A stretch of DNA of 64,000 bases from an uncultured Desulfobacteraceae bacterium. Lineage in GTDB: Bacteria; Desulfobacterota; DSM-4660; Desulfatiglandales; HGW-15. The stretch lies in the NCBI GenBank assembly GCA_964580575.1, contig CAZOLJ010000006.1, positions 825 through 64,824 of the forward strand. The letters are read 5' to 3'. The notes under the pieces were generated by a model, which worked only from the letters and a program-made list of their open reading frames with translations, had not been told where the DNA came from and searched no databases. The translations under genes and the position numbers were made by a program. Every line of letters begins with the position of its first letter. Position 1 is the stretch's first letter. This document shows, piece after piece, positions 3,995 through 63,229 of the stretch.

Positions 3995-4031
3995 CGCACA
4001 AGAGCGAAAGACGATCAAGGAGGTCAATGCG

Positions 4032-21887: not shown

Positions 21888-22040
21888 GCAGGCTGCTGAA
21901 AAACGCCCATCTGCGGCGTTACCCTCATCCCTCGTCACTGCGACGTACTGGACTGTACGTCTCATCCCTCGGGATTTCGGGTGCCTTGCATCTGGCCGTT
22001 TTTGAGCAGCCTGCGTAGCCGGTGTTTTTCAGCAACCTGC
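21888..22040. repeat. MITE/REP-like palindromic element
   Basis: 27-nt imperfect inverted arms (21888-21914 and 21988-22014, 23/27 complementary). A third arm copy at about 22021-22040. Internal palindrome GACGTAC-N6-GTACGTC. Direct repeat CTCATCCCTCG x2. Confidence 0.5.
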
Positions 22041-22224
22041 CAGTGTCGTGTCTTGGCTATCCCCTGTGGTCGAAATGAAAGATTAACTCCCAGGCGCTCT
22101 TTACGAAGCCGTGAACCTTGAACCGTGCACCGTGCTTCTTTCTTTTTATGAGCCTATGCTCAAAATATTTCTTGACAGGCGTCTTTGCTGTTTTATATTA
22201 TGAGCGTAAGCTCATAATAGGAGG

Positions 22225-36309: not shown

Positions 36310-38228
36310 GAATCGCTCTTGTTGGACAACCGAATTGCGGAAAAAGCGCTCTCTTCAACAGCGTGGCCGGATACAAGACCATCGCCTCCAACTTTCCGGG
36401 CACCACAGTGGATTGTGTTACAAGCCCGGTCAAATTGAACGGGGACAGCTTCACGCTAGTCGATTTGCCTGGGATTTATTCTGTTTCCTCTTCAGAAAGA
36501 GAGGAGATCTTGGCTCGCCGGTACCTCATCAAGGAGAGACCGGACTTGGTGATCAATATCCTGGATGCGTCCGTGCTGTCCAGGAGCCTCGAACTGACCC
36601 TTGAGCTTCTGGAGCTCAATTTCCCTCTGGTCATCTGCCTGAATATGATCGACGAAGCAGAAAAGAAGGGCGTGGAGATCGACGTGGGCCACCTGTCCCA
36701 GGAGTTAGGAGTCCCTGTGATTCCCACCATCGCGATTCGAGGGCAAGGAGTTCCGGAGCTCTTCCAGTCAGCCCTGGAGACGGCGAAAAGAGGAACTGCA
36801 GGCACGATTCATTTTCTGTCCCTGGATGTGGAGCGCGTGATTTCGGAACTCGCGGATCTTCTTGGGGTTGCCACAGCAAGGAGGCTGGGAGTGCCCCAGA
36901 GGTTCCTGGCCATTCGGTTGCTTGAACAGGACGAGGAGTTCGAGCAAGCCGTGCGAGTAATCAACCCCGGTATCATGGGCGACGTCGAACGCTTACGAAG
37001 CATGCTATCCGAGTGCCACGGAAGGCCTTCGGACATGGTGGTGTCGTCGGAACGGCATTCCCTGGCCATGAACCTTTTTGAGCACGTGGCCAAAGTCAAA
37101 CCACGAGGTGCAAAGCCTTTCAGGGAGCAAATCGACAAATACCTCATGCATCCTTACCTGGGGTATGCGCTTCTAGGGGCAATCCTCTTCTCCTTTTTCT
37201 GGATGGTTTTCAGTCTTGGCAAGCACATCGAAGAACCGATCCTCTCCTTGTTTGAGCAATTCGCAGCTTACCTGGGGGTGCACCTCAGCAAGGAGTCCCT
37301 TCTGTTCACCGTCCTCAATGGGTTGATCCAGGGCTTTTCGGGGGGCATTGGAATCGTCTTGCCTTACCTGATCCCCTTTCTCTTTGGACTTTCCCTGCTG
37401 GAAGACATTGGATACCTTCCAAGGGCCGCTTTCCTCATGGATTCCATTATGCACAGCATCGGGCTCCACGGGAAATCCATCATTCCCTTTGTACTGAGCT
37501 ACGGCTGCAATGTTCCTGCGATCATGGGCGTGAGAATCATGGAAAGGGCCAGGGACCGTTTTATCACTGCCGTTCTCGTCACCCTCATTCCCTGCGCTGC
37601 GCGGACGACCGTCATCTTCGCCCTGGTGGCTTTTTATCTCGGACCTCTTAAGGCGCTCTTGCTTTATGTTCTCAACGTCGTGGTCATCGCAGCGTCAGGC
37701 AAGATCCTTTCACGCTTCATGCCCGAGGTCTCCCCAGGGATGATCCTCGAAATGCCGAGCTACAGGTTACCGCAGTTCTCAGCCGTGATGCGGAAGGTTT
37801 GGTTCCGCCTCCGGGAATTTATCCTGATCGCCTGGCCTATTCTGATTGCGGGAAGCGTCATTCTCAGTCTCCTAGAGTACTTCCAGCTCGCTGAGCGCAT
37901 CAACGGGGTCCTCTCTTTTTTCACCAGCGGGCTGCTGGGCCTTCCTTCGGCAGTGGGCATCACCCTTATCTTCGGCATTTTGAGAAAGGAGCTGGCGATT
38001 ATCATGCTTGTCCAGGCTCTTGGAACAAGCACCTTTTCCTCCGTCATGACAGAGGAACAAATGATGGTTTTCACGGTCTTCAGTCTATTCTACATCCCCT
38101 GTCTTGCAACACTGGGCATGTTGCGCTCCACCATCGGTAACCGGGGCATGCTTTTTACCCTGTTTTTTACCACCGCCATCGGCACCCTGATGGCCCTCGG
38201 CTTCCGGGCTCTTTACTGGGCCTCCTGA
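36306..38228 (+). CDS. feoB: Ferrous iron transporter FeoB
   Basis: N-terminal G-domain 'ALVGQPNCGKSALFN', 'DLPG.YS' and 'NM.DEA', followed by a polytopic membrane domain; 640 aa. Confidence 0.95.
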   Translation: MRIALVGQPNCGKSALFNSVAGYKTIASNFPGTTVDCVTSPVKLNGDSFTLVDLPGIYSVSSSEREEILARRYLIKERPDLVINILDASVLSRSLELTLELLELNFPLVICLNMIDEAEKKGVEIDVGHLSQELGVPVIPTIAIRGQGVPELFQSALETAKRGTAGTIHFLSLDVERVISELADLLGVATARRLGVPQRFLAIRLLEQDEEFEQAVRVINPGIMGDVERLRSMLSECHGRPSDMVVSSERHSLAMNLFEHVAKVKPRGAKPFREQIDKYLMHPYLGYALLGAILFSFFWMVFSLGKHIEEPILSLFEQFAAYLGVHLSKESLLFTVLNGLIQGFSGGIGIVLPYLIPFLFGLSLLEDIGYLPRAAFLMDSIMHSIGLHGKSIIPFVLSYGCNVPAIMGVRIMERARDRFITAVLVTLIPCAARTTVIFALVAFYLGPLKALLLYVLNVVVIAASGKILSRFMPEVSPGMILEMPSYRLPQFSAVMRKVWFRLREFILIAWPILIAGSVILSLLEYFQLAERINGVLSFFTSGLLGLPSAVGITLIFGILRKELAIIMLVQALGTSTFSSVMTEEQMMVFTVFSLFYIPCLATLGMLRSTIGNRGMLFTLFFTTAIGTLMALGFRALYWAS

Positions 38229-38236
38229 GAAACAGA

Positions 38237-38256
38237 AAGGCCCCTTTCGGGGCCTT
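38237..38256. terminator. Hairpin terminator shared by convergent feoB and the hdrD-like gene
   Basis: AAGGCCCC-TTTC-GGGGCCTT, a perfect 8-bp stem between convergent stops. Weak T-runs on both sides. Confidence 0.65.
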
Positions 38257-38290
38257 ATGCTTCTTTGGAATTTGAAGAGAAGTCTTGCGG

Positions 38291-39604
38291 CTATTCTTCT
38301 TCCTCCTCTTCCCCCTCCTCGTCAAAAACGATCTCATCCCTTTCGTACTGGGCATCCCTCAGGGCATGAGCTTTTTCCACTTCCTCTTGGCTCCAGGGCT
38401 CCACGATGAGCGAGTCGGCCACGAGCTCCCACAGGTATTTGGTCTCGATGTCCAGGCCGAATTCCTTGGTTAGGCCTTTCATGATCTGGTCGCGACAGTT
38501 GTGGCAGGGCGCAATGACCAGTTTCGCTCCTGTGTCCTTGATCTGTTGGGCCTTAACCCTTCCGTAGTAAATCCTCTCGTCCGAATAGGGCATGGCCCAT
38601 GCTCCGCCGCCGGCTCCGCAGCAGTAGTTGTTCATCCGGTTGGGGTCCATGTCGACAAAACGCTCGCAGCACTGCTGGGTGATCCACCTCGGCTCTTCAA
38701 AGTAGCCGTGACCGAAAGCTTTCTGACTCTTCCTGCCATAGTTGCAGGGATCATGCACGGTCGCGAGTTCCTCATGGATCGTTTTATCCAATTTGATTCT
38801 TCCCGTCTCGATGTATTCTTTGAGAAGATCGTGAACGGAGACGACCTTGTATTTCTTGAAAACTTCGGGATACCAGTTTTGCAGACCAAGCCTGGTCGCA
38901 TAGTAGGCGTGCCCTCACTCCGGCAAAAGGAGCGTCTTGCACTCCAGCCTTTCCATGTGTTCGACGATGCGGCCCACGAGCGTCTTCATGGACTCGTCAT
39001 CGCCCGAGAAGAGGCCCCAGTTCACTCCCTCCCAGTTGTAGGAGGGCACGGTCCAGTCCTCCTTGGCCGCATAAAAAATGCGCCACCAGAATTTCATGTC
39101 ATCGGGCTCGCCGAAAGGCTCCTTGGAATTGACGGTGATCAGCACATTGGCACCCTTTTTGTCCACAGGCACATAGAACCCTGGGAAACCATCCGCTTCA
39201 AGCTCTTTGCCCAGGTCGGCGAGAAGAAAAAGGAAATCCGCCTTGGGAATCCCAAGGTTGTTCCCCCTGTTCAGATCCATGACCACGCCCTTGTGGATAG
39301 GGCCGGGGACCTTGTCTCTCGCGCGAAGGGTCCTGGCCCTTCGCATCATCTTGAGGATTTCCACGCCCTGGGGACAGGCGTATTCGCAACGGCCGCACAG
39401 GGTGCAGATCCAGGGGAACCTCGAATCAATGAGCTCCTGGTCCAATCCCAGGGCAGCCATACGCACGGCCTTACGCGGGTCCATGTTGTCGACGCCGGTA
39501 ACCGGGCAACCGCTGGCGCAGGTGCCGCAGGTGAAACAGACATCCGCCCACTCGGGAGACACTCTCAGTTTGCTTTCTTTACGGTTAATCACAACGGGTT
39601 CCAT
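38291..39604 (-). CDS. HdrD/DsrK/GlpC-like Fe-S (CCG-domain) oxidoreductase with selenocysteine (UGA at 38915-38917 recoded)
   Basis: Track ORFs 38915-39604 and 38291-38791 are in one frame. Translating through gives '...KTLLLPE-U-GHAYYATRLGLQNWYPEVF...'. The N-terminus has 2x[4Fe-4S] (CxxCxxCxxxCP); the C-terminus has 'NYCCGAGGG' and 'PCHNC' (CCG domain). Hairpin GACCA-GGCU-UGGUC lies 17 nt after the UGA (plus coordinates 38884-38897). Acidic poly-E tail. Confidence 0.8.
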
Positions 39605-39701
39605 TCAGTTCCTCCTTTTCCTAATAACATCCCAGCCCTGCAAACACCCTACGCCTTCATTGCGCGGTGTCTCTTGAGGGCGCGGAGCAAAAAACAGCAT
39701 G

Positions 39702-40091
39702 CTAACGGCTCAGGAATTTCTTGATCTGCGCAAGAAGTTTTTCTTTGTCCACGGGTTTGTCAAAAAAGGCGTCAGGGCTGAAGTACTCGTCGTCCCTCTC
39801 CTTTTCATATCGGACCCCCAACTCGTCCGCCATGCCTGAAATCCCGATGACGGGGGTGTTCTTGAGATCAGGGTCTGTTTTGATCCGCTTGCAGACTTCA
39901 AAACCCGAATACAAGGTCTCCATCATCACATCGAGCAGGACGAGGTCCGGATGCTCTTTTTGAGCCAATTCGACACCCTTCTTCCCGTCTTGTGCGGTCA
40001 GTGTTGCGAAACCATTGCGTTTCAAAAATGTTTCGGTGGTGAAAAGGAAATCGGGGTTGTCATCGATGATTAAAATCTTTTTAGATCCCAT
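39702..40091 (-). CDS. Single-domain response regulator (receiver)
   Basis: 'ILIIDDNPD...LLDVMME...K' receiver; 129 aa. Confidence 0.85.
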   Translation of the reverse strand: MGSKKILIIDDNPDFLFTTETFLKRNGFATLTAQDGKKGVELAQKEHPDLVLLDVMMETLYSGFEVCKRIKTDPDLKNTPVIGISGMADELGVRYEKERDDEYFSPDAFFDKPVDKEKLLAQIKKFLSR

Positions 40092-40130
40092 ATTCCTTCC
40101 TCTCTTTTTTCGACACAGACGACCAACGTC

Positions 40131-40982
40131 CTAGTATTCGGAGGGCATTTGTTTGAGCTGCGCCAGAGAAAAGACCGGTCCGTCCTTGCACACGTACTGG
40201 TCTCCAATGTTGCAGCGACCGCAAATGCCGACGCCGCATTTCATGCGCATTTCCAGAGAGAGAATAATCCGCTCCGGGGGAAACCCCAGTTTCTCCAACA
40301 CGGGTTGAGTGAACTTGATCATGACCGGCGGTCCGCACACAATGGCAATGGCGTTTTCCGCGTTCTTAATTTTTCGCTCCGTAATGGTGGGCACAAATCC
40401 CACGTTGTATTTCCAATTCGGATCATTCGTGCTGTCCACGGTGATGTGCATGTGAATGTCGTCCCTCTGCTCCCAGACAGCGAGTTCCTCCTTGTAAAGG
40501 AGCATTCCCGGGCTTCGGGCTCCGTACACCACCATGATGTCCTTGAATCGCGACCGGTTGTCCGGATGAAGCATGTAGACAATGCTGGAGCGAAGGGTGG
40601 TGAAAGCGAAACCGCCGCCCACGATGACCACATTCCTTCCCTCCATCTCCTCCCAGGGGTACCAGTTTCCCAGAGGGCCACGGATCCCCATCACTTCGCC
40701 CTCTTTCATGTTGTGAAGGTAGGTGGTCACCTGGCCGACCTTGTTCACGGTAAAGGCGACAAATCCCTTTTCCGTCGGGGAGGAGGCGATGCCGATCGGG
40801 ATCTCCCCTTTCCCTGCGATGGAGAGCTCTGCAAACTGACCCGGAGTATAGGCGAACTTCCTTTCGTCCTCAGGATCAAGGAAAACGAACCTGAAAGTCT
40901 TCAGGTTCTTGTCTTCGGTCTCCGTGACGATCTTGTCGATTCGGACCGGGTAAGGAAGATAGGGATTTTGCATCAGACTCAT
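40131..40982 (-). CDS. FAD/NAD(P)-binding oxidoreductase with C-terminal 2Fe-2S (PyrK/AsrB/FlxA-like)
   Basis: Ferredoxin-reductase fold ('PGQF..L', 'GPLG', 'V.GGGFA') and C-terminal 'MKCGVGICGRCN'. The start may be the internal Met at 40973. Confidence 0.8.
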   Translation of the reverse strand: MSLMQNPYLPYPVRIDKIVTETEDKNLKTFRFVFLDPEDERKFAYTPGQFAELSIAGKGEIPIGIASSPTEKGFVAFTVNKVGQVTTYLHNMKEGEVMGIRGPLGNWYPWEEMEGRNVVIVGGGFAFTTLRSSIVYMLHPDNRSRFKDIMVVYGARSPGMLLYKEELAVWEQRDDIHMHITVDSTNDPNWKYNVGFVPTITERKIKNAENAIAIVCGPPVMIKFTQPVLEKLGFPPERIILSLEMRMKCGVGICGRCNIGDQYVCKDGPVFSLAQLKQMPSEY

Positions 40983-40996
40983 ACTCCTTCTTCAAT

Positions 40997-41100
40997 CTGG
41001 AGTGATGGAGTGATGGAGTAGTGGAGTGTTGGGTTGAACAATTCAAGAAACCATCGATGACCTTCCATCACTCCAGTGCTCCAATACTCCAGTGCTCCAT
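40997..41100. repeat. Intercistronic hairpin element A built from degenerate 8-nt tandem repeats (TGGAGYRN)
   Basis: Left arm 40997-41033 is CTGGAGTGATGGAGTGATGGAGTAGTGGAGTGTTGGG. Right arm 41065-41100 is CCATCACTCCAGTGCTCCAATACTCCAGTGCTCCAT (inverted copies). 31-nt spacer. Confidence 0.6.
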
Positions 41101-41102
41101 TC

Positions 41103-42140
41103 TTAGTATCCATTCATCAATTCAAACACTTTTCGAATATCGATGTTGACAGGACAAAACTGAACACATCGCCCGCACCCGACGCATGCCGGCCCGTTCC
41201 TATACTTGTCTGCGTAATACTTCAGCTTGTGCATAAACCGCTGCCGGACCCGTTGGAGCTTTTTGTCCCGGGGATTGTGGCCGGACCCGTGCAGGGTGAA
41301 GAGCGGAAACATGCAGGCGTCCCAATTCCGGATCCTGTCCCCTTCTTTTCGGTAGACTTCGTCCTGGATGTCAAAGCACCAGCAGGTGGGACAAAGAAAC
41401 GTGCAGGTTCCGCAGTTGATGCACGCAAAAGAGACCCTCTCCCAGAAAGGGGCATTGAAAAGCTCATTGACCACTTTTCCCCGAAGCTGCTCCGTGGGCA
41501 CCTTGGAGGAGATTTTTTTCTCCGCCGCTCGGGGAAGGCTTAACGCCTTCTTGAGGAGAGCATCGTCGGCCTCTGTTCCGAAATCGACCTTTTCCAGGAA
41601 AGCCTCGCCCTTGGGCGTGAGGCTTCTCACCAGGTAACGGTCGCCCAGGTCGACCATGAGCGCATCCAGGCCTTTCTCGCTGAAGGGGCCGTTTCCCACA
41701 GAGGTGCAAAAGCAGGAGGCACAGGGGTCGTTGCAGCTGAAGCCGACAAGGGTGGTGGACTCCATGCGGCGGACCCACCACGGGTCTTGGAACTGAGGAT
41801 TGTCGAAATTGATCCTCACCAATTCAAAAGCAAAAGCGTCACAAGGCCTTATTCCCACGATCACCTGGGGAGAGAAGTCCTTCGCCGCTTCCTTGACGAC
41901 GTGCGCGTCCTCTTTGCTCTCGTCCAGAGTGTACTCGAACATCCGCTCTGACTGCGGAAGGATAACCGACTTCGGGGAAAGCCTGGTGTTCTGGAACTCA
42001 AAATTGGGCTTTCGACCGTTTTCCAGAAGCCTGAAGTTGTGGAAGTCCCCTTCCTTCACGGGGACAAACACCTTGTAAGCGCTTTGCAACCCTCTCAGTG
42101 CCTCAGTCCACTTTTCCTTGCTAAATGACTTTTTAAGCAT
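41103..42140 (-). CDS. 4Fe-4S dicluster protein (AsrA/FlxB-like)
   Basis: 'CINCGTCTFLCPTCWC' and 'CVGCGRCVQFCPVNI'. ATG at 42140; the track ORF start at 42254 reads through repeat element B. Confidence 0.7.
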   Translation of the reverse strand: MLKKSFSKEKWTEALRGLQSAYKVFVPVKEGDFHNFRLLENGRKPNFEFQNTRLSPKSVILPQSERMFEYTLDESKEDAHVVKEAAKDFSPQVIVGIRPCDAFAFELVRINFDNPQFQDPWWVRRMESTTLVGFSCNDPCASCFCTSVGNGPFSEKGLDALMVDLGDRYLVRSLTPKGEAFLEKVDFGTEADDALLKKALSLPRAAEKKISSKVPTEQLRGKVVNELFNAPFWERVSFACINCGTCTFLCPTCWCFDIQDEVYRKEGDRIRNWDACMFPLFTLHGSGHNPRDKKLQRVRQRFMHKLKYYADKYRNGPACVGCGRCVQFCPVNIDIRKVFELMNGY

Positions 42141-42152
42141 AACGCGAATCCT

Positions 42153-42254
42153 TAGGAGTATTGAATGCTGGAGTATTGGAGTCCTGGAGTGCTGGAGTAG
42201 TGGTGGAATAAAGAAAAAGAGAATATCCAGTACTCCAAGACTCCAGCAATCCAA
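42153..42254. repeat. Intercistronic hairpin element B (TGGAGYRN tandem repeats plus inverted copies)
   Basis: Left 42153-42206: TAGGAGTATTGAATGCTGGAGTATTGGAGTCCTGGAGTGCTGGAGTAGTGGTGG. Right 42227-42257: CCAGTACTCCAAGACTCCAGCAATCCAATCA. Confidence 0.6.
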
Positions 42255-43205
42255 TCATTTGACAAAGTCGTTATAGTCGTCCACTCGGTAAACATCCAGA
42301 GGCGGCCGCTGATCCATGCGGGTTCCGGCCTCCCAGCCGAAGAGCTCAAAAGCATCCTTGTTCAGCTTTTTGGTGAACGGCCTCATGGAGATCCCCACGG
42401 GGCAAACCCGTTCGCAAGCCCCGCAGTCCGTGCACCTTCCGGCACAATGGTAGGCTCGCAAAAAATGAAAGGTCATGGTGTCTACAGGGTCCGTGCTCTT
42501 CCCCACCCACTGGGGCCGCGACTCATCAACAAAGCAGGTCGGACAGTAGCAGAGAGGGCAGGCGTTCCGGCACGCGTAGCATCTGAGGCAGGATGAAATG
42601 AGCTGAGTGAAAAACTTCCGTTTTTCCTCGGGGCTCTTTCTCTCCAACACGTCAACGTCTTTGAAGGCGTTGACGCCCTCTTGTTCCGGCACCGGGTCGG
42701 CGACCATCTCGTCGTATTCCACAGGGTTCCGATGAAGGCAAGTGGAGCAATTGGTCCTCAAGAAATCTTTTTTCTTGAAGGTCTCCTGAAAACCGTTTCC
42801 GCTCACCGTGAAGGAGTCCTTGCTTTCAGTGACCTCCAAAATTTCTTTATTCCCCATCGTCCTCTTCACGGCTCGGTGGTCGATCATGCCGGTGCAGGGA
42901 ACGCCCACGATGTAAAGCTGTTCCCGCTTAATCTGGTTTTCGATGATGTGGGTCACGATGCTTCTGGAATTGCATCCATTGGCCACAATTCCGACGCGGT
43001 CGGTGCGCTTAGTCAGATAATTGCAGAGGTTCAGACCACAGTGGCTGTCCCAGTGAAGCAGGTCCACCTCCGCAGGATGCTTGATCAGCACCGGTTCATT
43101 CATCATGGGCACTGAGCCCTTCTGGTAGCCGATGAAAACGTCGACGGTTCCCTTCTCCAGGAGCTTTCGAGCGATGTCTCTGATTTTCTGAGTATACTCA
43201 AGCAT
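42255..43205 (-). CDS. FrhB/FdhB-N-terminal-like Fe-S protein (FlxC-like)
   Basis: 'CLRCYACRNACPLCYCPTCF' and 'CTDCGACERVCPVGI' with an N-terminal FrhB-like region. ATG overlaps the mvhD stop (TGATG). Confidence 0.7.
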   Translation of the reverse strand: MLEYTQKIRDIARKLLEKGTVDVFIGYQKGSVPMMNEPVLIKHPAEVDLLHWDSHCGLNLCNYLTKRTDRVGIVANGCNSRSIVTHIIENQIKREQLYIVGVPCTGMIDHRAVKRTMGNKEILEVTESKDSFTVSGNGFQETFKKKDFLRTNCSTCLHRNPVEYDEMVADPVPEQEGVNAFKDVDVLERKSPEEKRKFFTQLISSCLRCYACRNACPLCYCPTCFVDESRPQWVGKSTDPVDTMTFHFLRAYHCAGRCTDCGACERVCPVGISMRPFTKKLNKDAFELFGWEAGTRMDQRPPLDVYRVDDYNDFVK

Positions 43206-43636
43206 CAAACCACCTCAGCTCTTTTCTTAACAAGATAAGTTGCCTGACCGGTCTCCTTAACCGCCTTGATGACTTCGGTGGCAACCTCCACGAACTTCGT
43301 TGCTTCGGCAGAGGAAATCCACGAAAAGTGCAGCCTTCCCGGTTCCATCCCCACATGCTCGATCAGATTCTTGAACAGAGCGAACTTGCGTCTTGCGAAG
43401 TAATTACCTTCCAGGTAATGGCAGTCGCCCGGGTGTCACCCGGAAACCCAGACGCCGTCGGCGCCGTGCCGGAAGGCGGCGAGGATGAATTTGGGGCTCA
43501 CCCGGGCAGAGCAGGGCACCCGAATGACCCGGATATTGGATGGGTACTGGAAGCGGCTGACCCCTGCCAGGTCTGCCGCGCCATAGCTGCACCAGTTGCA
43601 CAAGAATGCAGTTATCTTAGGTTGCCAATCGTTCAT
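43205..43636 (-). CDS. mvhD: MvhD/FlxD-like protein with selenocysteine (UGA at 43436-43438 recoded)
   Basis: The track ORF ends at '...[10 protein letters not shown]'. Read-through gives '[23 protein letters not shown]...' to TGA at 43205. The Cys paralogue at 12848 has 'GVYVAGCLEGDCHF'. Hairpin AUUACCU-GGA-AGGUAAU lies 16 nt after the UGA (plus 43403-43419). Confidence 0.8.
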
Positions 43637-43654
43637 AGATAGCTCCTCAGCTCA

Positions 43655-43749
43655 AGAGTGACAAGTGACGAGTGACAAGTGACAAGTGACAAGCAACGAA
43701 GGCCAAAATCAAGATCCACAGACTCTCGTGACTTGTGACTTGTCACTCT
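43655..43749. repeat. Intercistronic hairpin element C built from 7-nt tandem repeats (GTGACRA)
   Basis: Left 43655-43694: AGAGTGACAAGTGACGAGTGACAAGTGACAAGTGACAAGC. Right 43725-43749: CTCGTGACTTGTGACTTGTCACTCT. The outer 12 bp (43655-43666 with 43738-43749) are perfectly complementary. Confidence 0.6.
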
Positions 43750-43753
43750 CTTC

Positions 43754-46700
43754 TCACATTTCATTGATCATGGCCATGATCTGCCCTTCCTCAAATCCCT
43801 TGAGGTTGAGCGCTCCCGAGCGGCAGGACGCCACGCACAGCCCACAGCCCTTGCAGAGCACCGGATTGACCTCCGCCTTTCCCGTGAAAGGGCCCTTCTG
43901 GATAAAGGAGGTCGCCGAATAAGGGCAGATCTCCACACAGACCCCGCAGCTGCTGCAGACGACAGGGGTCGCATAGGCGACCATACCGCTCACCGCGATG
44001 GTCTTTCTGGCCAGCAGGGTGACCGCTCTGGAGGCGGCCGCCTGGGCCTGGGCCACCGACTCATCAATGGGCTTCGGATAGTGGGCCATACCGCAAAGGA
44101 AGACGCCGTCCGTGGCAAACTGGGACGGACCGAGCTTGGCATGAGCCTCCACAAAAAAGCCGTCCTCGCTCAAAGGAACCTTGAAAAACTGGGCAAGCTT
44201 TTCGTCCTTGTAGGGAACAATGGCAGAGGCCAGGGCAAGCAAATCCGCCTTGATCAGGATGGGCCGTTGGAGGACGTGATCCATCACCTCGATCTCAAGG
44301 CCCTCTTTGCCGGCAGAGACTTTCGGTTTCTGTGAAATGGAGAACCGAATGAAGAGGATCCCCGCTTCTCGCGCCTCCCTGTAAAGGAGTTCCCGCTCCC
44401 CGTAGGTTCGGATATCCCGGTTGAGAATGTAAACATCCATGGCTGGGTTCAGTTCTTTGAGGTGGAGGGCGCTCTCGATGGAGTGGGTGCAGCAGACCCT
44501 CGAACAATAAGGCCTTTGGGGTTCGCGCGAACCCACGCATTGGATGAACACGGCTGTTTGAATCTTCTTGATCGACGGATCGCGATCGATGAACCTGCGG
44601 TCGAGCTCCTGGTGAGTCACCACGAGGGGGTGCTTCCCGTAAAGGTATTCCTCGGGCTTGTATTCATAGCATCCCGTGGCGAGCACGGCGATTCCATGTT
44701 CAAGGGTCCCCTGGAGGGTGCTGGACTGAAACGTGGTCTTGAAGCTTCCCACAAAACCTTCGACCTGGGTCAACTCGGCTCCGAGGTGGACCCGGATGTT
44801 TTTATCCCCTTGGACCGATTGCACAAGGCCCCCAAGATTTTTCTGGATATCTTCCCCCTGCCATGTCCTGTAAAGGTTCAGAGCCTGACCGCCCAGTACG
44901 GGAGCTTTCTCGACGATGTCCACCTCATAGCCCTGGTCGCTTAGGGTTTTTGCCGCCACCATACCGGAGATGCCGCCGCCGATCACGAGGGCCCGCTGGT
45001 TGATATCCAGCACGGCCTCTGGGAGGGATTCCATAAGAGCGACCTTGGCCACGGCCATGCGCACGAGGTCCTTGGCTTTGTCCGTCGCCTCCTGAGGATT
45101 GTCTTTGTGAACCCAGGAGTCCTGGTTGCGGATGTTGGTCATCTCGAAGAGATATTTGTTGAGGCCTGCGGTGACCAACGTCTCCTGGAACAGGGCTTCG
45201 TGGGTCTTGGGCGTGCATGCGGCCACCACGATCCGGTTGAGGGTGTTCGCCTTGATCACCTGGGCCATGGTGTCCTGAGTGTCCTGCGAGCAGGAGTAGA
45301 GGTTATCCGCCACGTACTCAACGTAGGGGAGGGTCTTCGCGTAGTCACGCACCGCCGGGACATTCACCACGCTGCCGATGTTGATGCCGCAATTGCAGAC
45401 AAACACTCCGATGCGAGGCCGCTCCCCCCGAATGTCCTTCTGCTCGGGCACTTCTTTCGCCTTGGTCAAGGTATTGCGAGCGCCGCTCAAAAGGGCTCCT
45501 GCCCGGGCAGCGGCCGAACTCGCTTCGATTACGGACTGGGGGATGTCCTTGGGCCCCTGGAAAGCGCCGCACACATAGATGCCTTCCCTGGATGTGGCCA
45601 CCGGAGCGAAGGAACTTGTCCTGCAGAACTGCGACCCTGTGAGGTCGATGCCGAGCTTGTCGGCCAATTCCATGACCTGCGGGGAGGTCTCGAGCCCCAC
45701 GGAGAGGACGACCATGTCAAAAGCCTCCTGGCGAAATTCACCGTCTTCAGTGGCATACTTGACACTGAGATCCTCGGTCAGCGGCATGGCCTCAACGGAG
45801 TGAACGCGGGACCGGATGAACCGAACCCCGTGTTTTTCCCGAGCGGCGTCGTAGTACCTTTCGAACTCCTTCCCGTGGGTCCGCATGTCCATATAGAAGA
45901 TGGCGCAATCGAGATTAGATCCTGAATGCTCCTTGGCGATCACCGCCTCTTTGATGGCATACATGCAGCAGACAGAGGAGCAGTAGGGATGGTCGCATTG
46001 GTGCATGTCCCTGGACCCGACGCACTGGAGCCAAGCGATCTTCTTGGGTTCCTTGTGATCGGACATGCGGGCGAGATGCCCCAGGGTAGGACCGGACGCT
46101 GAAAGGATCCTCTCGAACTCCATGGAAGTGACCACGTTCGGGAGCTTGGCGTAGCTGTAAGTATCGTACTTGGAGGGGTCAAAGGGTTGAAAACCTGGTG
46201 CAAGGATGATCGCTCCCACATCCAGTTCAATGATTTCATCCTTTTGAGAATGATCGATCGCCCCGACACCGCAAAATTCCGCACAGATCTTGCAGCCGCC
46301 GGTCTTGAAATGGATGCACATGCTCCTGTCTATGGCCGGCGTGTTGGGAATAGCCTGAGCGTAGGGAACGTAGATAGGCTTCCGGCCCTTGAGGCCCATA
46401 TCGTATTCGGAAGGAATGGGCTTCACCGAATGTTTGGTGATGTCTTCCAGTCTGATGTGCCCGGTCGGACAGACCGATGCACAGGCCCCGCACCCCATGC
46501 AGAATTCGGTCTGGATGTGAAACGGCGTATCGACCTTCATCTCGGTGCCGCGACCGGTCAGGCTGATGGCGGCATTTCCCATCCTCTCGCAGATCCTGGT
46601 GCAAAGTCCGCAAAGGATACAATCATCGTTCTCTTTCTTGAATCGGGGTTCTTCAAGGTCGTATTTTTTTGCCAGTTCCCTTAGAACGGGGACCTCCGGG

Positions 46701-46987
46701 CAACGGGCCAGAAGCAGCTCCACGAGCAACTTTCGACCCTTGTGAACGGCCTCCGTGTCCGTCTTGACCTCCATGCCTTCCCATATGGGGTAATTGCAGG
46801 ACGTGACAAAACGGGTCCGCCGTCCGTCGAAGACCTCCACAGTGCATAACCGGCACATTCCTGCAGGCTCCAGGGCCTTGTGGTGGCACAAAGTCGGGAT
46901 CTCGATCCCATATTTTTGTGCAATCTGGAGGATGTATTGTCCCTCTTCTCCTTGGACCGTTTTTCCGTTCATCTTGAAAGTAATCAT
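43754..46987 (-). CDS. Fusion protein: NuoG-N-terminal-like (2Fe-2S plus Fe-S) and HdrA-like flavoprotein lacking the first HdrA N-terminal module
   Basis: N-terminal 'MITFKMNGK......CHH....P.G.CR.C.VEV' (Fer2_4/NuoG type). Then HdrA body 'FERILSASGPTLGH...WLQCVGSRD...YCSSVCCMYAIKEA', a second Rossmann 'VIGGGISGM' and C-terminal 2x[4Fe-4S]. Confidence 0.85.
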   Translation of the reverse strand: MITFKMNGKTVQGEEGQYILQIAQKYGIEIPTLCHHKALEPAGMCRLCTVEVFDGRRTRFVTSCNYPIWEGMEVKTDTEAVHKGRKLLVELLLARCPEVPVLRELAKKYDLEEPRFKKENDDCILCGLCTRICERMGNAAISLTGRGTEMKVDTPFHIQTEFCMGCGACASVCPTGHIRLEDITKHSVKPIPSEYDMGLKGRKPIYVPYAQAIPNTPAIDRSMCIHFKTGGCKICAEFCGVGAIDHSQKDEIIELDVGAIILAPGFQPFDPSKYDTYSYAKLPNVVTSMEFERILSASGPTLGHLARMSDHKEPKKIAWLQCVGSRDMHQCDHPYCSSVCCMYAIKEAVIAKEHSGSNLDCAIFYMDMRTHGKEFERYYDAAREKHGVRFIRSRVHSVEAMPLTEDLSVKYATEDGEFRQEAFDMVVLSVGLETSPQVMELADKLGIDLTGSQFCRTSSFAPVATSREGIYVCGAFQGPKDIPQSVIEASSAAARAGALLSGARNTLTKAKEVPEQKDIRGERPRIGVFVCNCGINIGSVVNVPAVRDYAKTLPYVEYVADNLYSCSQDTQDTMAQVIKANTLNRIVVAACTPKTHEALFQETLVTAGLNKYLFEMTNIRNQDSWVHKDNPQEATDKAKDLVRMAVAKVALMESLPEAVLDINQRALVIGGGISGMVAAKTLSDQGYEVDIVEKAPVLGGQALNLYRTWQGEDIQKNLGGLVQSVQGDKNIRVHLGAELTQVEGFVGSFKTTFQSSTLQGTLEHGIAVLATGCYEYKPEEYLYGKHPLVVTHQELDRRFIDRDPSIKKIQTAVFIQCVGSREPQRPYCSRVCCTHSIESALHLKELNPAMDVYILNRDIRTYGERELLYREAREAGILFIRFSISQKPKVSAGKEGLEIEVMDHVLQRPILIKADLLALASAIVPYKDEKLAQFFKVPLSEDGFFVEAHAKLGPSQFATDGVFLCGMAHYPKPIDESVAQAQAAASRAVTLLARKTIAVSGMVAYATPVVCSSCGVCVEICPYSATSFIQKGPFTGKAEVNPVLCKGCGLCVASCRSGALNLKGFEEGQIMAMINEM

Positions 46988-47009
46988 CGGTCAAATCCTT
47001 TTTTCCGCA

Positions 47010-48911
47010 CTATCCCACGACAATGGCATCGAACTTACAGGCGTCGTAGCAGATCCCGCACTTGACGCACTTTCCTTGGTCCAGTTGATGAACCTTTTTC
47101 TTGTCCCCCGCGATGGCTTCCTGGGGACACTTGAGAGCACACACGTGACACCCTGTGCAGGCCTGCTCGTCCACCTCATAGTGAAAGAGGGGTTTGCAGA
47201 CCCCAGCAAAGCATTTTTTGTCCTTAATGTGGGCCTCGTACTCATCACGAAAGTAGAGAATGGTGGTGAGAACCGGATTGGGAGCCGAGGTGCCCAGCCC
47301 GCAGAGGGAAAACTTCTGGATCATGCTCCCCAACTCTTCGAGCAGCTCGATGTCGCCTTCTTTACCCCTGCCCTCACAGATGCCCGTGAGCACATCGAGC
47401 ATTTGCTTGATTCCCTCCCGACAAGGGGTGCACTGGCCGCAGGATTCGCCGTTGAGAAAGTCAAGAAAGTAACGGGCCAGATCCACCATGCAAGTGTCCT
47501 GATCCATGACGATCATGCCGCCGGAGCCCATCATGGAACCTACCTTGGTCAGTTCATCAAAATCGACTTGAAGATCCAGGAACGCCTCCGGGATACAGCC
47601 CCCAGAAGGCCCTCCGGTCTGAACAGCCTTGAATTTTCGCTTTTTGGGAATCCCCCCTCCCATGTCGAAAATGATCTCCCGCAGAGGAGTGCCCATCGGC
47701 ACTTCAACCAGGCCGGTATTCTTCACTTTTCCAACGAGGCTGAACACCTTGGTGCCTTTGCTGTATTTCGTTCCCATGCCGGCGTACCATTCGGCCCCTT
47801 TGAGCATGATGACGGGAACGTTTGCGTAGGTTTCGACGTTGTTGAGATTGGAGGGACCGTCCCTGAATCCCTTTTCCACCGTGTGAACATACTTGGCCCT
47901 CGGTCTCCCAACCTTCCCCTGCAGCGAGGCCATGAGGGCTGTGGATTCTCCGCAAACGAATGCGCCAGCCCCGGTGGAGATCTTGATGCTGAAGCTGAAC
48001 CCGGAACCTGCGATGTTGTCCCCGAGCAACCCGAGATCCTCCGCTTGCCGGATGGCGTTGACGAGACGCTTCACCGCCAGTGGATACTCATTGCGCACAT
48101 AGATGTAGCCCTGAGCCGATCCAATGGCGTAGGCCGCTATCAGCATTCCTTCCAGGACGCTGTGGGGATCTCCCTCCAGCACACTCCTGTCCATATAAGC
48201 CCCTGGGTCGCCCTCATCGGCATTACAGATGACATACCGCTCTCCGCGGTGTTTGCGACAGCTCTCCCATTTTATTCCCGTAGGAAATCCGCCGCCGCCC
48301 CGACCCCTCAGACCGGACTTCTTGATGCTTGTGATGATATCCTCAGGTTTCATTTCAGCGAGGACACGGGTGAAAGCGAAATAGCCTCCTCTCCCAATAT
48401 ATTCCTGGACGCTCTGAGGATCGATGTAGCCGCAATTGCGCAAGGCGACCTTGACTTGCCGAGAATAAAACGGGATTTCTTCCAAGAAGGGGATCGCTTT
48501 GAGGGGTTTCACCTTTTCGAGGGGGTTCCGGATGTCTTCCTCAAGGACGGATCGGGGGTCTCGCATCTGGCCAAGGATCAACTTCTTGCTGAACTTCTCT
48601 TCCGTGTAGTCTTGAACAACATCCAAGACCCTATCCTCGGTCACCCGTTTGTACACGACCCTCGGTCGCCCCTTTGCCACTATCTCCACCAGAGGCTCTT
48701 CTTCGCAAAAGCCGAGACAACCGGTTTGCCGAACTTGAAAAGAGTGAGCTTCAGGATACTCTTTCAGCGCTTTTTCGAAGGTCGCTTTGGCTCCGGCAGC
48801 GATCCCGCAGGACGCCATTCCCACATTGAGCATCATGGTCTCTGGGTAGTAGAGTTTCTGACTATACTCTGAAGTGATCTTTTCCAGATCTTTCACCGAG
48901 TGGATTTTCAT
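47010..48911 (-). CDS. NuoF/HydB-like NADH-binding FMN Fe-S flavoprotein
   Basis: 'GRGGGGFPTG.KW' (FMN), 'CNADEGDPGA', 'ESCGQCTPCREG' and C-terminal 2x[4Fe-4S] ferredoxin motifs; 633 aa. Confidence 0.9.
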   Translation of the reverse strand: MKIHSVKDLEKITSEYSQKLYYPETMMLNVGMASCGIAAGAKATFEKALKEYPEAHSFQVRQTGCLGFCEEEPLVEIVAKGRPRVVYKRVTEDRVLDVVQDYTEEKFSKKLILGQMRDPRSVLEEDIRNPLEKVKPLKAIPFLEEIPFYSRQVKVALRNCGYIDPQSVQEYIGRGGYFAFTRVLAEMKPEDIITSIKKSGLRGRGGGGFPTGIKWESCRKHRGERYVICNADEGDPGAYMDRSVLEGDPHSVLEGMLIAAYAIGSAQGYIYVRNEYPLAVKRLVNAIRQAEDLGLLGDNIAGSGFSFSIKISTGAGAFVCGESTALMASLQGKVGRPRAKYVHTVEKGFRDGPSNLNNVETYANVPVIMLKGAEWYAGMGTKYSKGTKVFSLVGKVKNTGLVEVPMGTPLREIIFDMGGGIPKKRKFKAVQTGGPSGGCIPEAFLDLQVDFDELTKVGSMMGSGGMIVMDQDTCMVDLARYFLDFLNGESCGQCTPCREGIKQMLDVLTGICEGRGKEGDIELLEELGSMIQKFSLCGLGTSAPNPVLTTILYFRDEYEAHIKDKKCFAGVCKPLFHYEVDEQACTGCHVCALKCPQEAIAGDKKKVHQLDQGKCVKCGICYDACKFDAIVVG

Positions 48912-48932
48912 GTTTCAGCCTCTTGTTGGATC

Positions 48933-49430
48933 CTATTCGTATCCGCCCAGGATTTTCGTGGCTTCATCAGGGGACAGCCGGGCGTGAACAGCCTCATTAA
49001 TTTTGACTACAGGTCCGAGACTGCAGCAGCCGATGCAGCGCACGGATTCAAGGGTGAAGCGTCCGTCTCCCGTGGTCTGCCCATCATGGATATGCAACTG
49101 TTCTTGTATCTGCTCATGAACCCGCTTGGCCCCTCTGACATGGCACGCTGTCCCCAGGCAAACCGTAATCAGATTGCGTCCGCGCGGCTCCAGGCTGAAG
49201 GTAGCGTAGAACGTCGCAATTCCATAGATCTGACTCAGGGGAACACCGACTTTTTCCGCAAGATAGGTGAGGCTTGGTCTAGGGAGGTAATTGTAGCGCC
49301 TCTGTATGGCCTGAAGCATCATGATCAGATTTTCTTTGTCATTGCCAAATTGGGATTCGATCAAATTGTCCAGTTCAAAGTAATCCAATTCATCGGCAGA
49401 AGCAGTCTGCACCGGACGCACCTCATTCAT
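48933..49430 (-). CDS. NuoE/HoxE-like 2Fe-2S thioredoxin-fold subunit
   Basis: 'VCLGTACHVRGA' and 'CIGCCSLGPV'; 165 aa. Confidence 0.9.
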   Translation of the reverse strand: MNEVRPVQTASADELDYFELDNLIESQFGNDKENLIMMLQAIQRRYNYLPRPSLTYLAEKVGVPLSQIYGIATFYATFSLEPRGRNLITVCLGTACHVRGAKRVHEQIQEQLHIHDGQTTGDGRFTLESVRCIGCCSLGPVVKINEAVHARLSPDEATKILGGYE

Positions 49431-49454
49431 TCCCCAGTCCTCCTCTCCTGCAAT

Positions 49455-49868
49455 CTACGCCCTGGTTGTCTGATCCGTACGGGGAACACCAACCGCTTGA
49501 TTGACGACAGGGCAGTTTTCAACGCACACGCCGCAGCCTGTGCACAGATCCATGTTGATGCTCCGGGCCCGTTTTCTTATTTTCACTTTGAAATCTCCAG
49601 GGCTTCCTTCTACGGACTCAAGATCAGAGTAAGTGATGAGCTCGATATTAAGATGCCGGCCGACCTCGACCAGTTTGGGGGAGATGATTCACATGGCGCA
49701 GTCGTTGGTGGGAAAGGTCTTGTCCAATTGAGCCATGGCCCCGCCGATGGCAGGGGATTTCTCAAGAAGGTAGACATAATACCCGGAATCCGCCAAATCA
49801 AGGGCGGACTGCATCCCTGCGATACCCCCGCCCACAACCAGAACCGATCCTTTCACGCTGCTGGACAT
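49455..49868 (-). CDS. Stand-alone HdrA N-terminal module with selenocysteine (UGA at 49689-49691 recoded)
   Basis: '[47 protein letters not shown]...' continues to '[12 protein letters not shown]' and TAG at 49455. It aligns to residues ~10-120 of the HdrA at 9804 ('FPTNNCDLCTLSP'). Hairpin CUGGUCG-AGGU-CGGCCGG lies 15 nt after the UGA (plus 49656-49673). Confidence 0.75.
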
Positions 49869-50168
49869 ATCCTTATTCTCCTTGGATTCCAAACAATAAT
49901 CAGAGTTCCGAGCCTTTCCGGTGTGAAGAACACAATTCGCCTCCCCGACCTGAGCCATCACGACATGTGAATTTCAGGCCTACCAAAACCCTGGACACCC
50001 TAGAGTGATGCCGGATCAATACTCATGAGTGACAAAAGGCCAGGCTTAATGAGGAAGACATTTAAAGTGTATAGGAACCAGATACACTATGAGATGAACA
50101 TAGCCATGACCGAGGGAATCTGTCAATGGTTTTTTGTTCTCACTATGGGGAAAAAAGGCATGGAACCC

Positions 50169-60245: not shown

Positions 60246-61529
60246 CTACTCCTCCTCTTCTTCCTCCTTGGGAATCATGTGTTCCGGGATCTCCATGTGC
60301 TCGGCGATCACTTCCTTGAAGTGGACGGCCTTGATGTCGAGCTTGTGCTCCTTGGCCAGGTCCCGGATCTGGTCGATGCAGTTGTGGCAGGGCACCAGAA
60401 CGATCTTGGCGCCTGTTTCGCGGATCTGCTCGGCCTTGATCTTTCCCGAAGCCAGGCGGTACTTTTTCATTTCACCGCCCATGGGCATGGCCCCGCCGCC
60501 GCCCCCGCAACAGTAGTTGTAGTTGCCCTGGTACTTCATGGGGCGGAAATCCTCCGACACCATTTCAGCCAGATGCCGGTTTTTCTCTGCGAGTCCTCCG
60601 CTCCGGATGACATTGCAGGGGTCCTGGACCGTGGTGGGCACTTTGATCTTCTCTTTGAGCTTGATCCGGCCGTCCCTGAGGTAATCGTGGAAGAGTTCCA
60701 CCGAGTGAATCACTTCCTGCTTTGGCTCGTATCCCAACCAGGTGGGCGCTTCGTACCGAAGCGCACGATACGCGTGTCCTCACTCGGTTATGGCGACTTG
60801 TTTCACCTCCAGTTCCTCGGCGCGCTTGAAGGTGTTTTCAACGATCATGCGAGCGGTAGGCGCATCATTGATGAACATGGCCAGGTTCGTACCGTCCCAT
60901 CCTTTCTCGCTCGGGACAGTCCAGTCCTCCCCGGCGACCGTAAAGATTTTGGCCACCTCCATGATGTCCTGAGGGTAGAACTTGGGCTCCCTGGCATTCA
61001 CCGTGTACATGATTTTGGCGCCCTTCTTGTCGATGGGGATCTTGACGCCCACGACTTCCGCCGCGGCCTCCTCCTCGCACCACTGGATGGTCTCGACCCA
61101 GTCTTCCTTGGACACGGCCATCTGATTGCCGGTGAGCTTGTAGTTTTCGACGGCTTTCTTGAGACCTTCAGGCGCGATTCCCAAGGAGGTCAGCAGGCCC
61201 CGGAGGGTGGAGATGAGAAAGCCGATGTCAATGCCGAAGGGACAGTAGAGGGTGCAGCGCCTGCACATGTTGCACTCATAGTAAATGGTTTTGTAGATCT
61301 CCTGGAGGTACTCCTTGTCCACCCGGCCTTTTTTCTTGAGCAGGTCTCTCAAGAATCTCACTTTGTAGGCGGGGATCATTTTGGGATCTTTCCCGCTCGC
61401 CAGATAGAAGTGGCAGGTGTCGGCGCACATGCTGCAGTGGGTGCAGGTTTCAATCCACGTCTTCAAACGGGCACCCAATCGGGGTTTGAGGAAATCCATG
61501 ATCGCTTTCGGGTTCACGTCTTCAGTCAT
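60246..61529 (-). CDS. DsrK/HdrD-like Fe-S (CCG-domain) protein with selenocysteine (UGA at 60780-60782 recoded)
   Basis: Track ORFs 60780-61529 and 60246-60737 are in frame. Read-through gives '...KQVAITE-U-GHAYRALRYEAPTWLGYEPK...'. 'CTHCSMCADTC' and 'CNMCRRCTLYCP' are N-terminal; 'NYCCGGGGG' and 'PCHNC' are C-terminal. Perfect 8-bp hairpin GCGCUUCG-GUA-CGAAGCGC lies 15 nt after the UGA (plus 60746-60764). Poly-E tail, as in 38291-39604. Confidence 0.8.
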
Positions 61530-62982: not shown

Positions 62983-63076
62983 GGGCACAAAGTCACAAAG
63001 GCACAGAGGCACAAAGCAGAGAGCTAACGGGATCCTGAATTGACTTTGTGCCTTTGCCGCTCTGTCGCTTTGTCCC
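62983..63076. repeat. Hairpin element D built from 8-nt tandem repeats (GNCACARA)
   Basis: Left 62983-63023: GGGCACAAAGTCACAAAGGCACAGAGGCACAAAGCAGAGAG. Right 63041-63076: TGACTTTGTGCCTTTGCCGCTCTGTCGCTTTGTCCC. 62984-62995 is the exact reverse complement of 63041-63052. Confidence 0.55.
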
Positions 63077-63229
63077 TGAAGCTGTTGGCTTCAGCCGACA
63101 GCGGTTGAGTCCGTGTTCATCGGTGTTCATCCGTGTCCTCTTTCTCCGAAAGAAGGCTTTGGTCTTCGGCTGCCTACCCTTCGACGTCGCTCAGGGCCTT
63201 CGGCTGCCTACTGCTTACTACTTACTTCT

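Follow-up and report, generated by a model that had tools for sequence, protein, structure and literature searches.

Tandem-repeat hairpins in the spacers of an Hdr/Flx operon are probably gene-less relatives of PF05635-carrying, intervening-sequence-like elements

Introduction

The operon nuoEF-hdrA-mvhD-flxCBA of an uncultured Desulfobacteraceae bacterium raises the question of why three of its gene junctions are occupied by long hairpins of one build, and whether these hairpins belong to the operon at all. The operon lies on the minus strand (a correction to a preliminary description of this DNA) of a 64-kb window, by which we mean the whole stretch of 64,000 nt analyzed, from contig CAZOLJ010000006.1 of assembly GCA_964580575.1. 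The hairpins, named A, B, and C, sit in the spacers of this single operon. We assign a probability of about 0.6 to the reading that they are gene-less palindromic elements resembling the intervening sequences (IVS) of rRNA genes, that they are co-transcribed with the operon and are probable substrates of RNase III, and that the Hdr/Flx system does not conserve them as part of its regulation. The hairpins of the window represent a kind of element that is known but little understood, found here in a new lineage and a new operon.

Results and discussion

Three spacers share one hairpin architecture

The window contains four hairpins with periodic arms, which are listed below.

40997-41100, minus strand: hairpin A, flxB-like/flxA-like spacer; arms 40997-41037 and 41064-41100; unit TGGAGYNN
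42153-42254, minus strand: hairpin B, flxC-like/flxB-like spacer; arms 42163-42203 and 42226-42254; unit TGGAGYNN
43655-43749, minus strand: hairpin C, hdrA-fusion/mvhD spacer; arms 43655-43699 (GTGACRA) and 43725-43749
62984-63076, no strand assigned: fourth hairpin, unit GGCACAAA; 33-nt arms separated by 27 nt; located between convergent genes and not in the operon

Hairpins A-C consist of three to five tandem units of 7-8 nt, a centre of 23-45 nt, and inverted units. Tandem Repeats Finder and an inverted-repeat search recovered the arrays and their inverted complements at all three junctions, and the latter returned several pairing registers for each hairpin; the preliminary description had claimed both the shared architecture and the alternative registers. 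Two corrections to it are that hairpin C is asymmetric (5.3 versus 2.9 copies) and that a fourth hairpin of this build is present elsewhere in the window.

Hairpin A starts 2 nt past the flxB-like stop codon and ends 14 nt ahead of the flxA-like ATG, and its stem excludes the AAGGAG ribosome-binding site. Its arrays have a period of 8 (40998-41032, 4.4 copies of TGGAGTGA; 41071-41099, CTCCAGTG), and its 35-nt arms are 77% complementary and 32 nt apart. Hairpin B begins immediately past the flxC-like stop codon. It has a period-8 array at 42155-42203 (4.5 copies of CTGGAGTA) that faces its complement, giving arms of 26-29 nt that are 83-88% complementary and 23-37 nt apart. The arrays of hairpin C have a period of 7 (43657-43693, 5.3 copies of AGTGACA; 43728-43747, 2.9 inverted copies), with arms of 24-25 nt that are 84-88% complementary and 31-45 nt apart. 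Each of the three hairpins leaves the downstream ribosome-binding site unpaired. The predicted RNA folds of the window hairpins range from -37 to -51 kcal/mol on either strand. A detector of periodic-arm hairpins found four in the window as compared to none in 30 dinucleotide-preserving shuffles. These four are built from three different units (TGGAGYNN, GTGACRA, and GGCACAAA), and solo arrays occur in addition.

Other readings of hairpins A-C were rejected. The 18 terminator-like sites that lie in 38000-50000 are all at other positions, and a promoter reading also failed. A CRISPR array has repeats of 24-48 nt with unique spacers, whereas the units here are 7-8 nt long and contiguous. The preliminary description had likewise set aside CRISPR and terminators. 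A search of the window with Rfam 15 at the gathering score gave no matches.

The repeats also mislead gene calling. The mechanical open reading frame (ORF) of the flxB-like gene (41103-42254, minus strand) carries a 38-codon extension that runs through hairpin B to a TTG, whereas the gene really starts with the ATG at 42140. This is one example of the spurious WS.GV.E / ..YS.TP.LQ reading frames that had been said to arise from these repeats. The hairpins generate false N-terminal extensions and short "hypothetical proteins", and they probably also break up metagenome assemblies.

Orthologous junctions turn over rapidly

A scan of species-representative genomes provided 80 loci (given as L numbers), mostly from Desulfatiglandales or Desulfobacteraceae metagenome-assembled genomes, plus NaphS2 and N47. 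The order hdrA-mvhD-flxC-flxB-flxA is conserved in all 80 genomes, and the mvhD/flxC junction always measures 0-3 nt. The other three junctions vary from 4 to 671 nt and contain hairpins of differing units or nothing. Many of the long junctions hold tandem-repeat hairpins of units other than those of the window; TGGAGTNN and GTGACRA are also among the units found at these operon junctions. The further units are as follows.

GCATAGN: L026
GTAAGCA: L071
GTTGAGTN: L021, L076
GGCACRN: L008, L032
GAAACTG: L083
TTAGCYG: L028
CTAAAGTGN: L030, L037, L038, L066

The closest relatives (L005 and L006, ~90% FlxB identity) have A and B in common with the window, and their hdrA/mvhD junction sequences are different; the L005 spacer has a GTTGCAS-like unit. 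In L007-L009 (76-79% identity), the position of A is taken by a remnant that has degenerated, by a hairpin of GGCACRG units, or by a long hairpin of the AAATCCGAAAT type. At 64% FlxB identity, L065 has an A element nearly identical to that of the window, and the GTGACRA unit of hairpin C recurs at the same junction in L032. The pattern is one of gain, loss, and replacement and not of a conserved operon feature. The idea of an operon-tied family was not supported: orthologous junctions of 4-671 nt with other units or nothing show turnover at ~90% protein identity. The preliminary description had counted absence from related strains, with no effect on expression, against its own proposal; most relatives do lack the hairpins, and A and B are kept in L005 and L006.

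Several observations concern how the elements sit relative to one another. An inverted-repeat element, GCAGGCTGCTGAAAAACGCCCATCTGC ... GCATCTGGCCGTTTTTGAGCAGCCTGC, at window positions 21888-22014 recurs in L032 (~4680-4860) and L010 (9823-9948). The L032 copy has a GTGACRA tandem-repeat hairpin nested within it, and hairpins therefore appear to insert into other palindromic elements. Nested hairpins are also seen in L126 (3114-3355) and L143 (127-302), where the loops of TGGAGT hairpins contain arrays of another unit of the TTGTGATT / AATCACAA type. L063 has two PF05635 elements (757-1274 and 3934-4604) in two junctions of one operon, and two junctions of L032 (4678-5019 and 6079-6229) each have a GGCACRN hairpin of ~100 nt whose loop is the same in both. 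Because the same element is present twice in one operon, these sequences suggest local copying in cis.

Full-length forms carry a PF05635 gene

The arms of some elements enclose a gene. At junctions of this operon, ORFs of 120-124 aa lie between CTAAAGTGN arms in L021, L056, L063 (two junctions), L074, and L078, where the ORF is frameshifted; L071 has a remnant. These ORFs match Pfam PF05635 (23S rRNA intervening-sequence protein, a four-helix bundle) with E ~1e-20. The CTAAAGTGN elements form a size series that runs from ~500 nt with the gene, through loops of 100-200 nt that retain the first codons of the PF05635 gene (L030, L066, L070, L037), to a gene-less hairpin of 104 nt (L038). Similarly, PF05635 ORFs are found between TGGAGTNN arms in L107 and L145 (E ~3e-18) and in four more loci fetched via the protein (L215, L217, L218, L219). 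The innermost units of these gene-bearing elements (CTGGAGTGATGG on the 5' side and CCCAWCACTCCA on the 3' side) match hairpin A. PF05635 is flanked by GAACATC units in L114 and by GTGAGAA units in L180, the latter between moxR and DUF58 genes.

The TGGAGT-associated clade of PF05635 comprises 4568 homologues at E <= 1e-10. Its best 120 clusters share 83-96% identity with the query and are mostly found on single short contigs; these many near-identical clusters are what a multicopy element would give. In 14 of the 16 loci with called neighbors, the PF05635 gene points the same way as the genes that closely flank it, and we conclude from this that it relies on read-through transcription. The preliminary description did not make the link to PF05635. 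Nor did our searches of an open-access library return a paper that describes a general association between PF05635 genes and tandem-repeat arms; a note on Coxiella heptamers is all that we found there.

A tblastn search for PF05635 genes on plasmids returned almost only filamentous cyanobacteria, the classic home of short tandemly repeated repetitive (STRR) heptamers. Nine of ten such regions are embedded in tandem arrays, which are inverted on the two sides of PF05635 in L205, L206, L208, L210, L213, and L209, direct on both sides in L207 and L212, and of two different units in L211; the tenth region, L214, could be read in its downstream flank only. In L209 (Azospirillum lipoferum 4B plasmid AZO_p2, NC_016586.1, 13998-15130), a 23S rRNA gene contains a PF05635 ORF that had not been annotated, between inverted arrays of GGACRGA-type heptamers (GAGGACGGATGACAGAGGACGGAGGACAG ... 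CCGTCCTCTGTCTTCTGTCATCCGTCTTCTG). The arrangement is that of a textbook intervening sequence whose arms are tandem repeats. In L212 (Pseudanabaena galeata plasmid NZ_CP112875.1, 45871-47009), the PF05635 gene is located between cas6 and cas4, with ~17 AAAGCTA copies upstream and ~10 AAAGCCA copies downstream that are direct and not inverted.

The elements are dispersed and have a fixed polarity

A first census with the periodic-arm detector covered 1.14 Mb, made up of the window and the genome loci, and found 31 periodic hairpins. All 31 are intergenic, as compared to a crude coding fraction of 0.86, and their neighboring genes may be co-directional, convergent, or divergent. When spacers of at least 50 nt were compared, hairpins were present in 16/126 spacers of the three variable operon junctions versus 5/231 spacers elsewhere in these loci (Fisher p = 2e-4, odds ratio 6.6), with crude gene calls and no correction for shared ancestry. 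The preliminary description had named random placement with respect to gene junctions as a result that would speak against it. Every intergenic context is occupied, all of the census hairpins are intergenic, and hairpins are ~6-fold enriched in operon junctions. A-C are placed exactly between cistrons with a free ribosome-binding site, as had been claimed, and this position does not define the element, since convergent and divergent spacers hold it too.

A metagenome scan with three TGGAGT cores at 8-nt spacing as the query found TGGAGTNN arrays in at least 120 unrelated contigs from many environments. Among the contigs listed, ~50 complete TGGAGTNN hairpins occur in ++, --, +-, and -+ contexts that are unrelated to hdr; the counts by context are 17 co-directional, 6 convergent, and 2 divergent, in proportions close to background.

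The order of the arms is constant. TGGAGT hairpins, among the contigs listed, read [TGGAGT]n...[ACTCCA]n in 50/50 and 56/56 cases and never the reverse. Across all unit families of the window and the genome loci, the 5' arm has more G than C in 28/31 hairpins, and the same is true of 14/18 hairpins of non-TGGAG families at the metagenome loci. Ordinary inverted repeats are without such a bias (49:60 and 56:58). Arm order is independent of strand because a hairpin reads identically on both, and for this reason the idea that "TGGAG arm first" marks orientation to transcription was dropped. The fixed polarity argues against repeated de novo origin. In gene-bearing elements the purine-rich arm is upstream of the ORF, and the polarity hints at a constraint; examples would be a need of the loop gene for purine tracts that bind the ribosome, or shielding of the C-rich arm before its partner is transcribed.

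Relation to known repeat systems

The preliminary description knew of no assigned function for such elements. This was too strong, given that the architecture has been described in Geobacter metallireducens (PMC2700814) and as cyanobacterial STRR (PMC2670836). The paired sites of G. metallireducens, classes 1-3, have 3-5 tandem units of 7-9 nt (GTTGCTYN, TCTCCGTS[Y], MTYCTGA) that are arranged as opposite-strand pairs at variable distance; they are multicopy and intergenic, with one pair inside an operon between proB and proA (Aklujkar et al. 2009, PMC2700814). Aklujkar et al. interpreted them as binding sites for IHF/HU and did not note a link to PF05635. The window hairpins resemble these sites in their tandem-unit arms, inverted pairing, and intergenic, multicopy build with several unit families. 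They have periods of 7-8 and 2.9-5.3 copies per arm, in keeping with a class defined by arms of three or more tandem units of 7-9 nt, and their second arm is inverted, 77-88% complementary, and 23-45 nt away. The published unit consensus sequences differ from TGGAGYNN, GTGACRA, and GGCACAAA.

In cyanobacteria, STRR such as those of hupS/hupL are hairpin-capable heptamer repeats between the cistrons of a redox enzyme, for which roles in transcript stability or translational coupling have been proposed (PMC2670836). The functional ideas of the preliminary description match these proposals. Cyanobacterial PF05635 genes sit inside such arrays; cyanobacteria are another phylum, and the window units are 7-8 nt long and of other families.

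The third comparison is with rRNA IVS. Those of Coxiella and Leptospira 23S rRNA are regarded as selfish and are excised by RNase III, and the Coxiella IVS has tandem GACAGAT heptamers beside its S23p ORF that vary in copy number between strains and are cut by RNase III at the first repeat (PMC4990558). An IVS has a long stem of terminal inverted repeats that include tandem heptamers, and its full-length loop holds the four-helix-bundle ORF. The window hairpins also have a long stem of terminal inverted repeats. They differ in lying in mRNA spacers between protein-coding genes rather than in a 23S rRNA helix, and they are without the S23p/PF05635 ORF that IVS carry, which is found in same-unit elements elsewhere. 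A second RNase III precedent is the hmw 5'-untranslated region of Haemophilus influenzae, where a transcribed (ATCTTTC)n heptamer array forms a long hairpin whose cleavage alters expression and repeat dynamics (PMC12721329). Unlike the window elements, the hmw hairpin has a non-repeat, G-rich right arm, is located in a 5'-untranslated region, is phase-variable, and is not part of a dispersed family. Cleavage of heptamer-repeat hairpins by RNase III has thus been demonstrated twice (PMC4990558, PMC12721329), and the preliminary description's "unknown" had to be given up. By analogy, these two precedents and the co-orientation of PF05635 genes lend support to an RNA role.

Familiar palindromic repeats, namely repetitive extragenic palindromes and bacterial interspersed mosaic elements (REP/BIME), enterobacterial repetitive intergenic consensus (ERIC) sequences, and Correia elements or Neisseria miniature insertion sequences (Correia/NEMIS), are also dispersed between genes, are co-transcribed, and can alter mRNA stability or undergo RNase III cutting. 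Unlike the window elements, they are single-sequence palindromes with a fixed consensus that are linked to REP-associated tyrosine transposases (RAYT) or insertion sequence (IS) transposases, and they are neither arrays of short tandem units nor linked to PF05635.

Cyanobacteria, Geobacter, and rRNA intervening sequences have for decades been known to contain hairpins of short tandem repeats. Such hairpins are now placed in energy-metabolism operons of Thermodesulfobacteriota, and the gene-less forms are tied to elements that carry PF05635.

Origin and likely effect of the hairpins

Our current hypothesis is that hairpins A, B, and C and the hairpin at 62984-63076 would belong, as forms without a gene, to a class of intergenic palindromes that is widespread. 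The arms of the class are inverted arrays of 7-9-nt tandem units, and its full-length forms, with a PF05635 gene in the loop, are organized like 23S rRNA intervening sequences and cyanobacterial STRR hairpins. Such elements are gained, lost, resized, and replaced in spacers over short evolutionary time, and because of this rapid turnover they behave as selfish or near-neutral DNA; the repeat element itself is probably selfish. Inside a transcription unit they would be co-transcribed and folded into imperfect double-stranded stems of 25-35 bp, which RNase III probably cuts, by analogy with rRNA intervening sequences and the hmw leader. Cutting would split the polycistronic mRNA at the junctions, and the stem remnants could alter the stability of the flanking segments. 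Based on these analogies, RNase III processing or a changed stability of segments is the likeliest effect on the operon.

Tests for an RNA signature gave no positive signal. Fold z-scores against shuffles on the mRNA strand are weak for A (-2.1) and C (-1.7). The census of periodic hairpins was used in their place because shuffled sequence with G-rich and C-rich parts also folds well. The folding strand preference is inconsistent: the plus strand is favored by A and the minus strand by C, and B folds about equally well on both. Stem mismatches fall mostly at the variable positions of the units. In alignments of three or four orthologous sequences, the cores are invariant, double changes affect one or two pairs only, and the hairpins differ chiefly in unit copy number.

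A number of results weigh against the gene-less, IVS-like reading. Co-transcription, folding, and cleavage are all steps that we infer. Mismatches on the mRNA strand have no excess of G.U-compatible pairs, which are equally frequent in antisense, and orthologous hairpins have almost no compensatory changes, which lends no support to selection for RNA pairing. The predicted stem of hairpin A is broken by internal loops of 2-3 nt every 8 nt. A tblastn search found no PF05635 in the window, and the link of A-C to this family rests on the shared unit, architecture, and inner boundary (CTGGAGTGATGG / CCCAWCACTCCA); beyond the innermost degenerate units, the loops of gene-less and gene-bearing TGGAGT elements have no sequence in common. 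No transposase was seen beside any copy, and no target-site duplication or mobility mechanism was identified; filled and empty sites were too diverged to align. Lastly, the ~6-fold enrichment at operon junctions is not explained by a purely selfish model.

That enrichment (16/126 versus 5/231 control spacers) is one reason to consider hairpins that the host has selected, which would be kept in the Hdr/Flx operon for mRNA stability, processing, or translational coupling and would so tune subunit ratios. A and B have been kept in the window, in L005 and L006, and in the distant L065, with arms more similar than the flanking genes, and the downstream ribosome-binding site is unpaired at each hairpin. 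The 3' arm of TGGAGT-family hairpins (ACUCC) is moreover complementary to the downstream GGAGU ribosome-binding site, for which the 5' arm could be a decoy, and the same roles have been proposed for the hupS-hupL STRR hairpins (PMC2670836). We nevertheless consider this explanation improbable. Most relatives manage without hairpins, junctions can measure as little as 4-10 nt, close relatives have different unit families at one junction, and the same hairpins are also present in unrelated operons and between convergent or divergent genes. Neither G.U strand asymmetry nor covariation was seen, and the enrichment test disregards shared ancestry. Operon-specific regulation is thus the less likely reading because of turnover and dispersal. 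We give similarly little credence to the proposal that the units are putative DNA sites, in inverted orientation, for a nucleoid or regulatory protein of the IHF/HU type or for the PF05635 pentamer, with hairpin potential as a by-product. It would account for conserved unit cores whose variable positions are non-complementary between arms, for the fixed polarity of the TGGAGT hairpins (50/50 and 56/56, among the contigs listed), for solo arrays in the window and the direct-repeat flanks of L212 and L207, and for the pairing of each PF05635 clade with its own unit, and binding of a global regulator was proposed by Aklujkar et al. for the same architecture (PMC2700814). However, dozens of units would require as many specificities, a spacing of 8 nt is out of step with the helical repeat of DNA, the correlation of clade and unit is equally expected from common descent, and the same arms serve as RNA stems in rRNA intervening sequences (PMC4990558).

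The hairpins could also be mutational by-products, in which local replication slippage makes the arrays and template switching the inverted arm (quasi-palindrome formation), and which are neither mobile nor functional. Unit copy number does vary between close orthologues and between Coxiella strains (PMC4990558), loops are heterogeneous, and a mobility gene or target duplication was not found. This is the least probable of the alternatives, as one unit family recurs at non-homologous sites in unrelated contigs, its polarity unchanged and its PF05635 gene closely related; hairpins are nested within other elements (L032, L126, L143); two copies are present in one operon (L063, L032); and a de novo origin predicts both polarities where one alone is observed. 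Returning to the gene-less, IVS-like elements, a bolder extension is that the window hairpins, STRR, the Geobacter paired sites, and rRNA IVS form one mobile class, with PF05635 forms as autonomous members and gene-less forms as their abundant non-autonomous derivatives. The PF05635 pentamer, which is related to the Avd protein of diversity-generating retroelements, might then recognize the units and drive spread or maintenance in a manner that depends on read-through, and the G-rich-arm-first polarity would be functional. We regard this extension as speculative, and it is rather doubtful as a whole.

Operon setting and other features of the window

The operon encodes, in series, nuoE-like and nuoF-like proteins, a 1077-aa HdrA fusion, MvhD, a 317-aa FlxC-like protein, a 345-aa Fer4_22 FlxB-like protein, a 283-aa FAD/NAD-binding FlxA-like protein, a response regulator, and HdrC-like and HdrB-like proteins. 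The window corresponds to a metagenome contig from JGI (3300020048, Ga0207193_1000534), and homologues of the FlxB-like protein are labeled Thermodesulfobacteriota or Deltaproteobacteria. The genes that frame hairpins A-C and the solo arrays are as follows.

40131-46987, minus strand: host genes framing hairpins A-C
40131-40982, minus strand: flxA-like, FAD/NAD-binding
41103-42140, minus strand: flxB-like, Fer4_22
42255-43208, minus strand: flxC-like
43204-43636, minus strand: mvhD
43754-46987, minus strand: hdrA fusion
63110-63136, no strand assigned: solo tandem array TCCGTGTTCA, 2.7 copies; inverted partner not found
63204-63230, no strand assigned: solo tandem array CTGCTTA, 3.9 copies; reverse complement of the L071 unit GTAAGCA
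~22100-22135: solo tandem array GCCGTGAACCTTGAACCGTGCACCGTGC without a partner arm; resembles the 3' arm of the L032 GGCACRN hairpin

In the window, mvhD and the flxC-like gene overlap and their junction is without an element. A terminator-like hairpin at 38237-38256 comes after these genes and is likely the terminator of the operon. The mvhD gene has an in-frame TGA at 43436-43438 (minus strand), at the first Cys of the C..GDCHY motif of MvhD homologues, and its product matches PF02662 end to end if this codon is read as Cys. The TGA probably encodes selenocysteine; the Rfam run gave no selenocysteine insertion sequence (SECIS), and no further SECIS search was made. A second, diverged hdrA-mvhD pair is located at 9975-13237 on the plus strand, with 42% and 40% identity to the operon copies, and further hdrB/hdrC-like genes lie at 60294-61457. 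Finally, two copies of a palindrome (TTATGAGC-N4-GCTCATAA) at 22141-22222 flank a TTGACA-17-TATATT promoter-like site upstream of a gene that begins near 22231, an arrangement that looks like a repressor operator.

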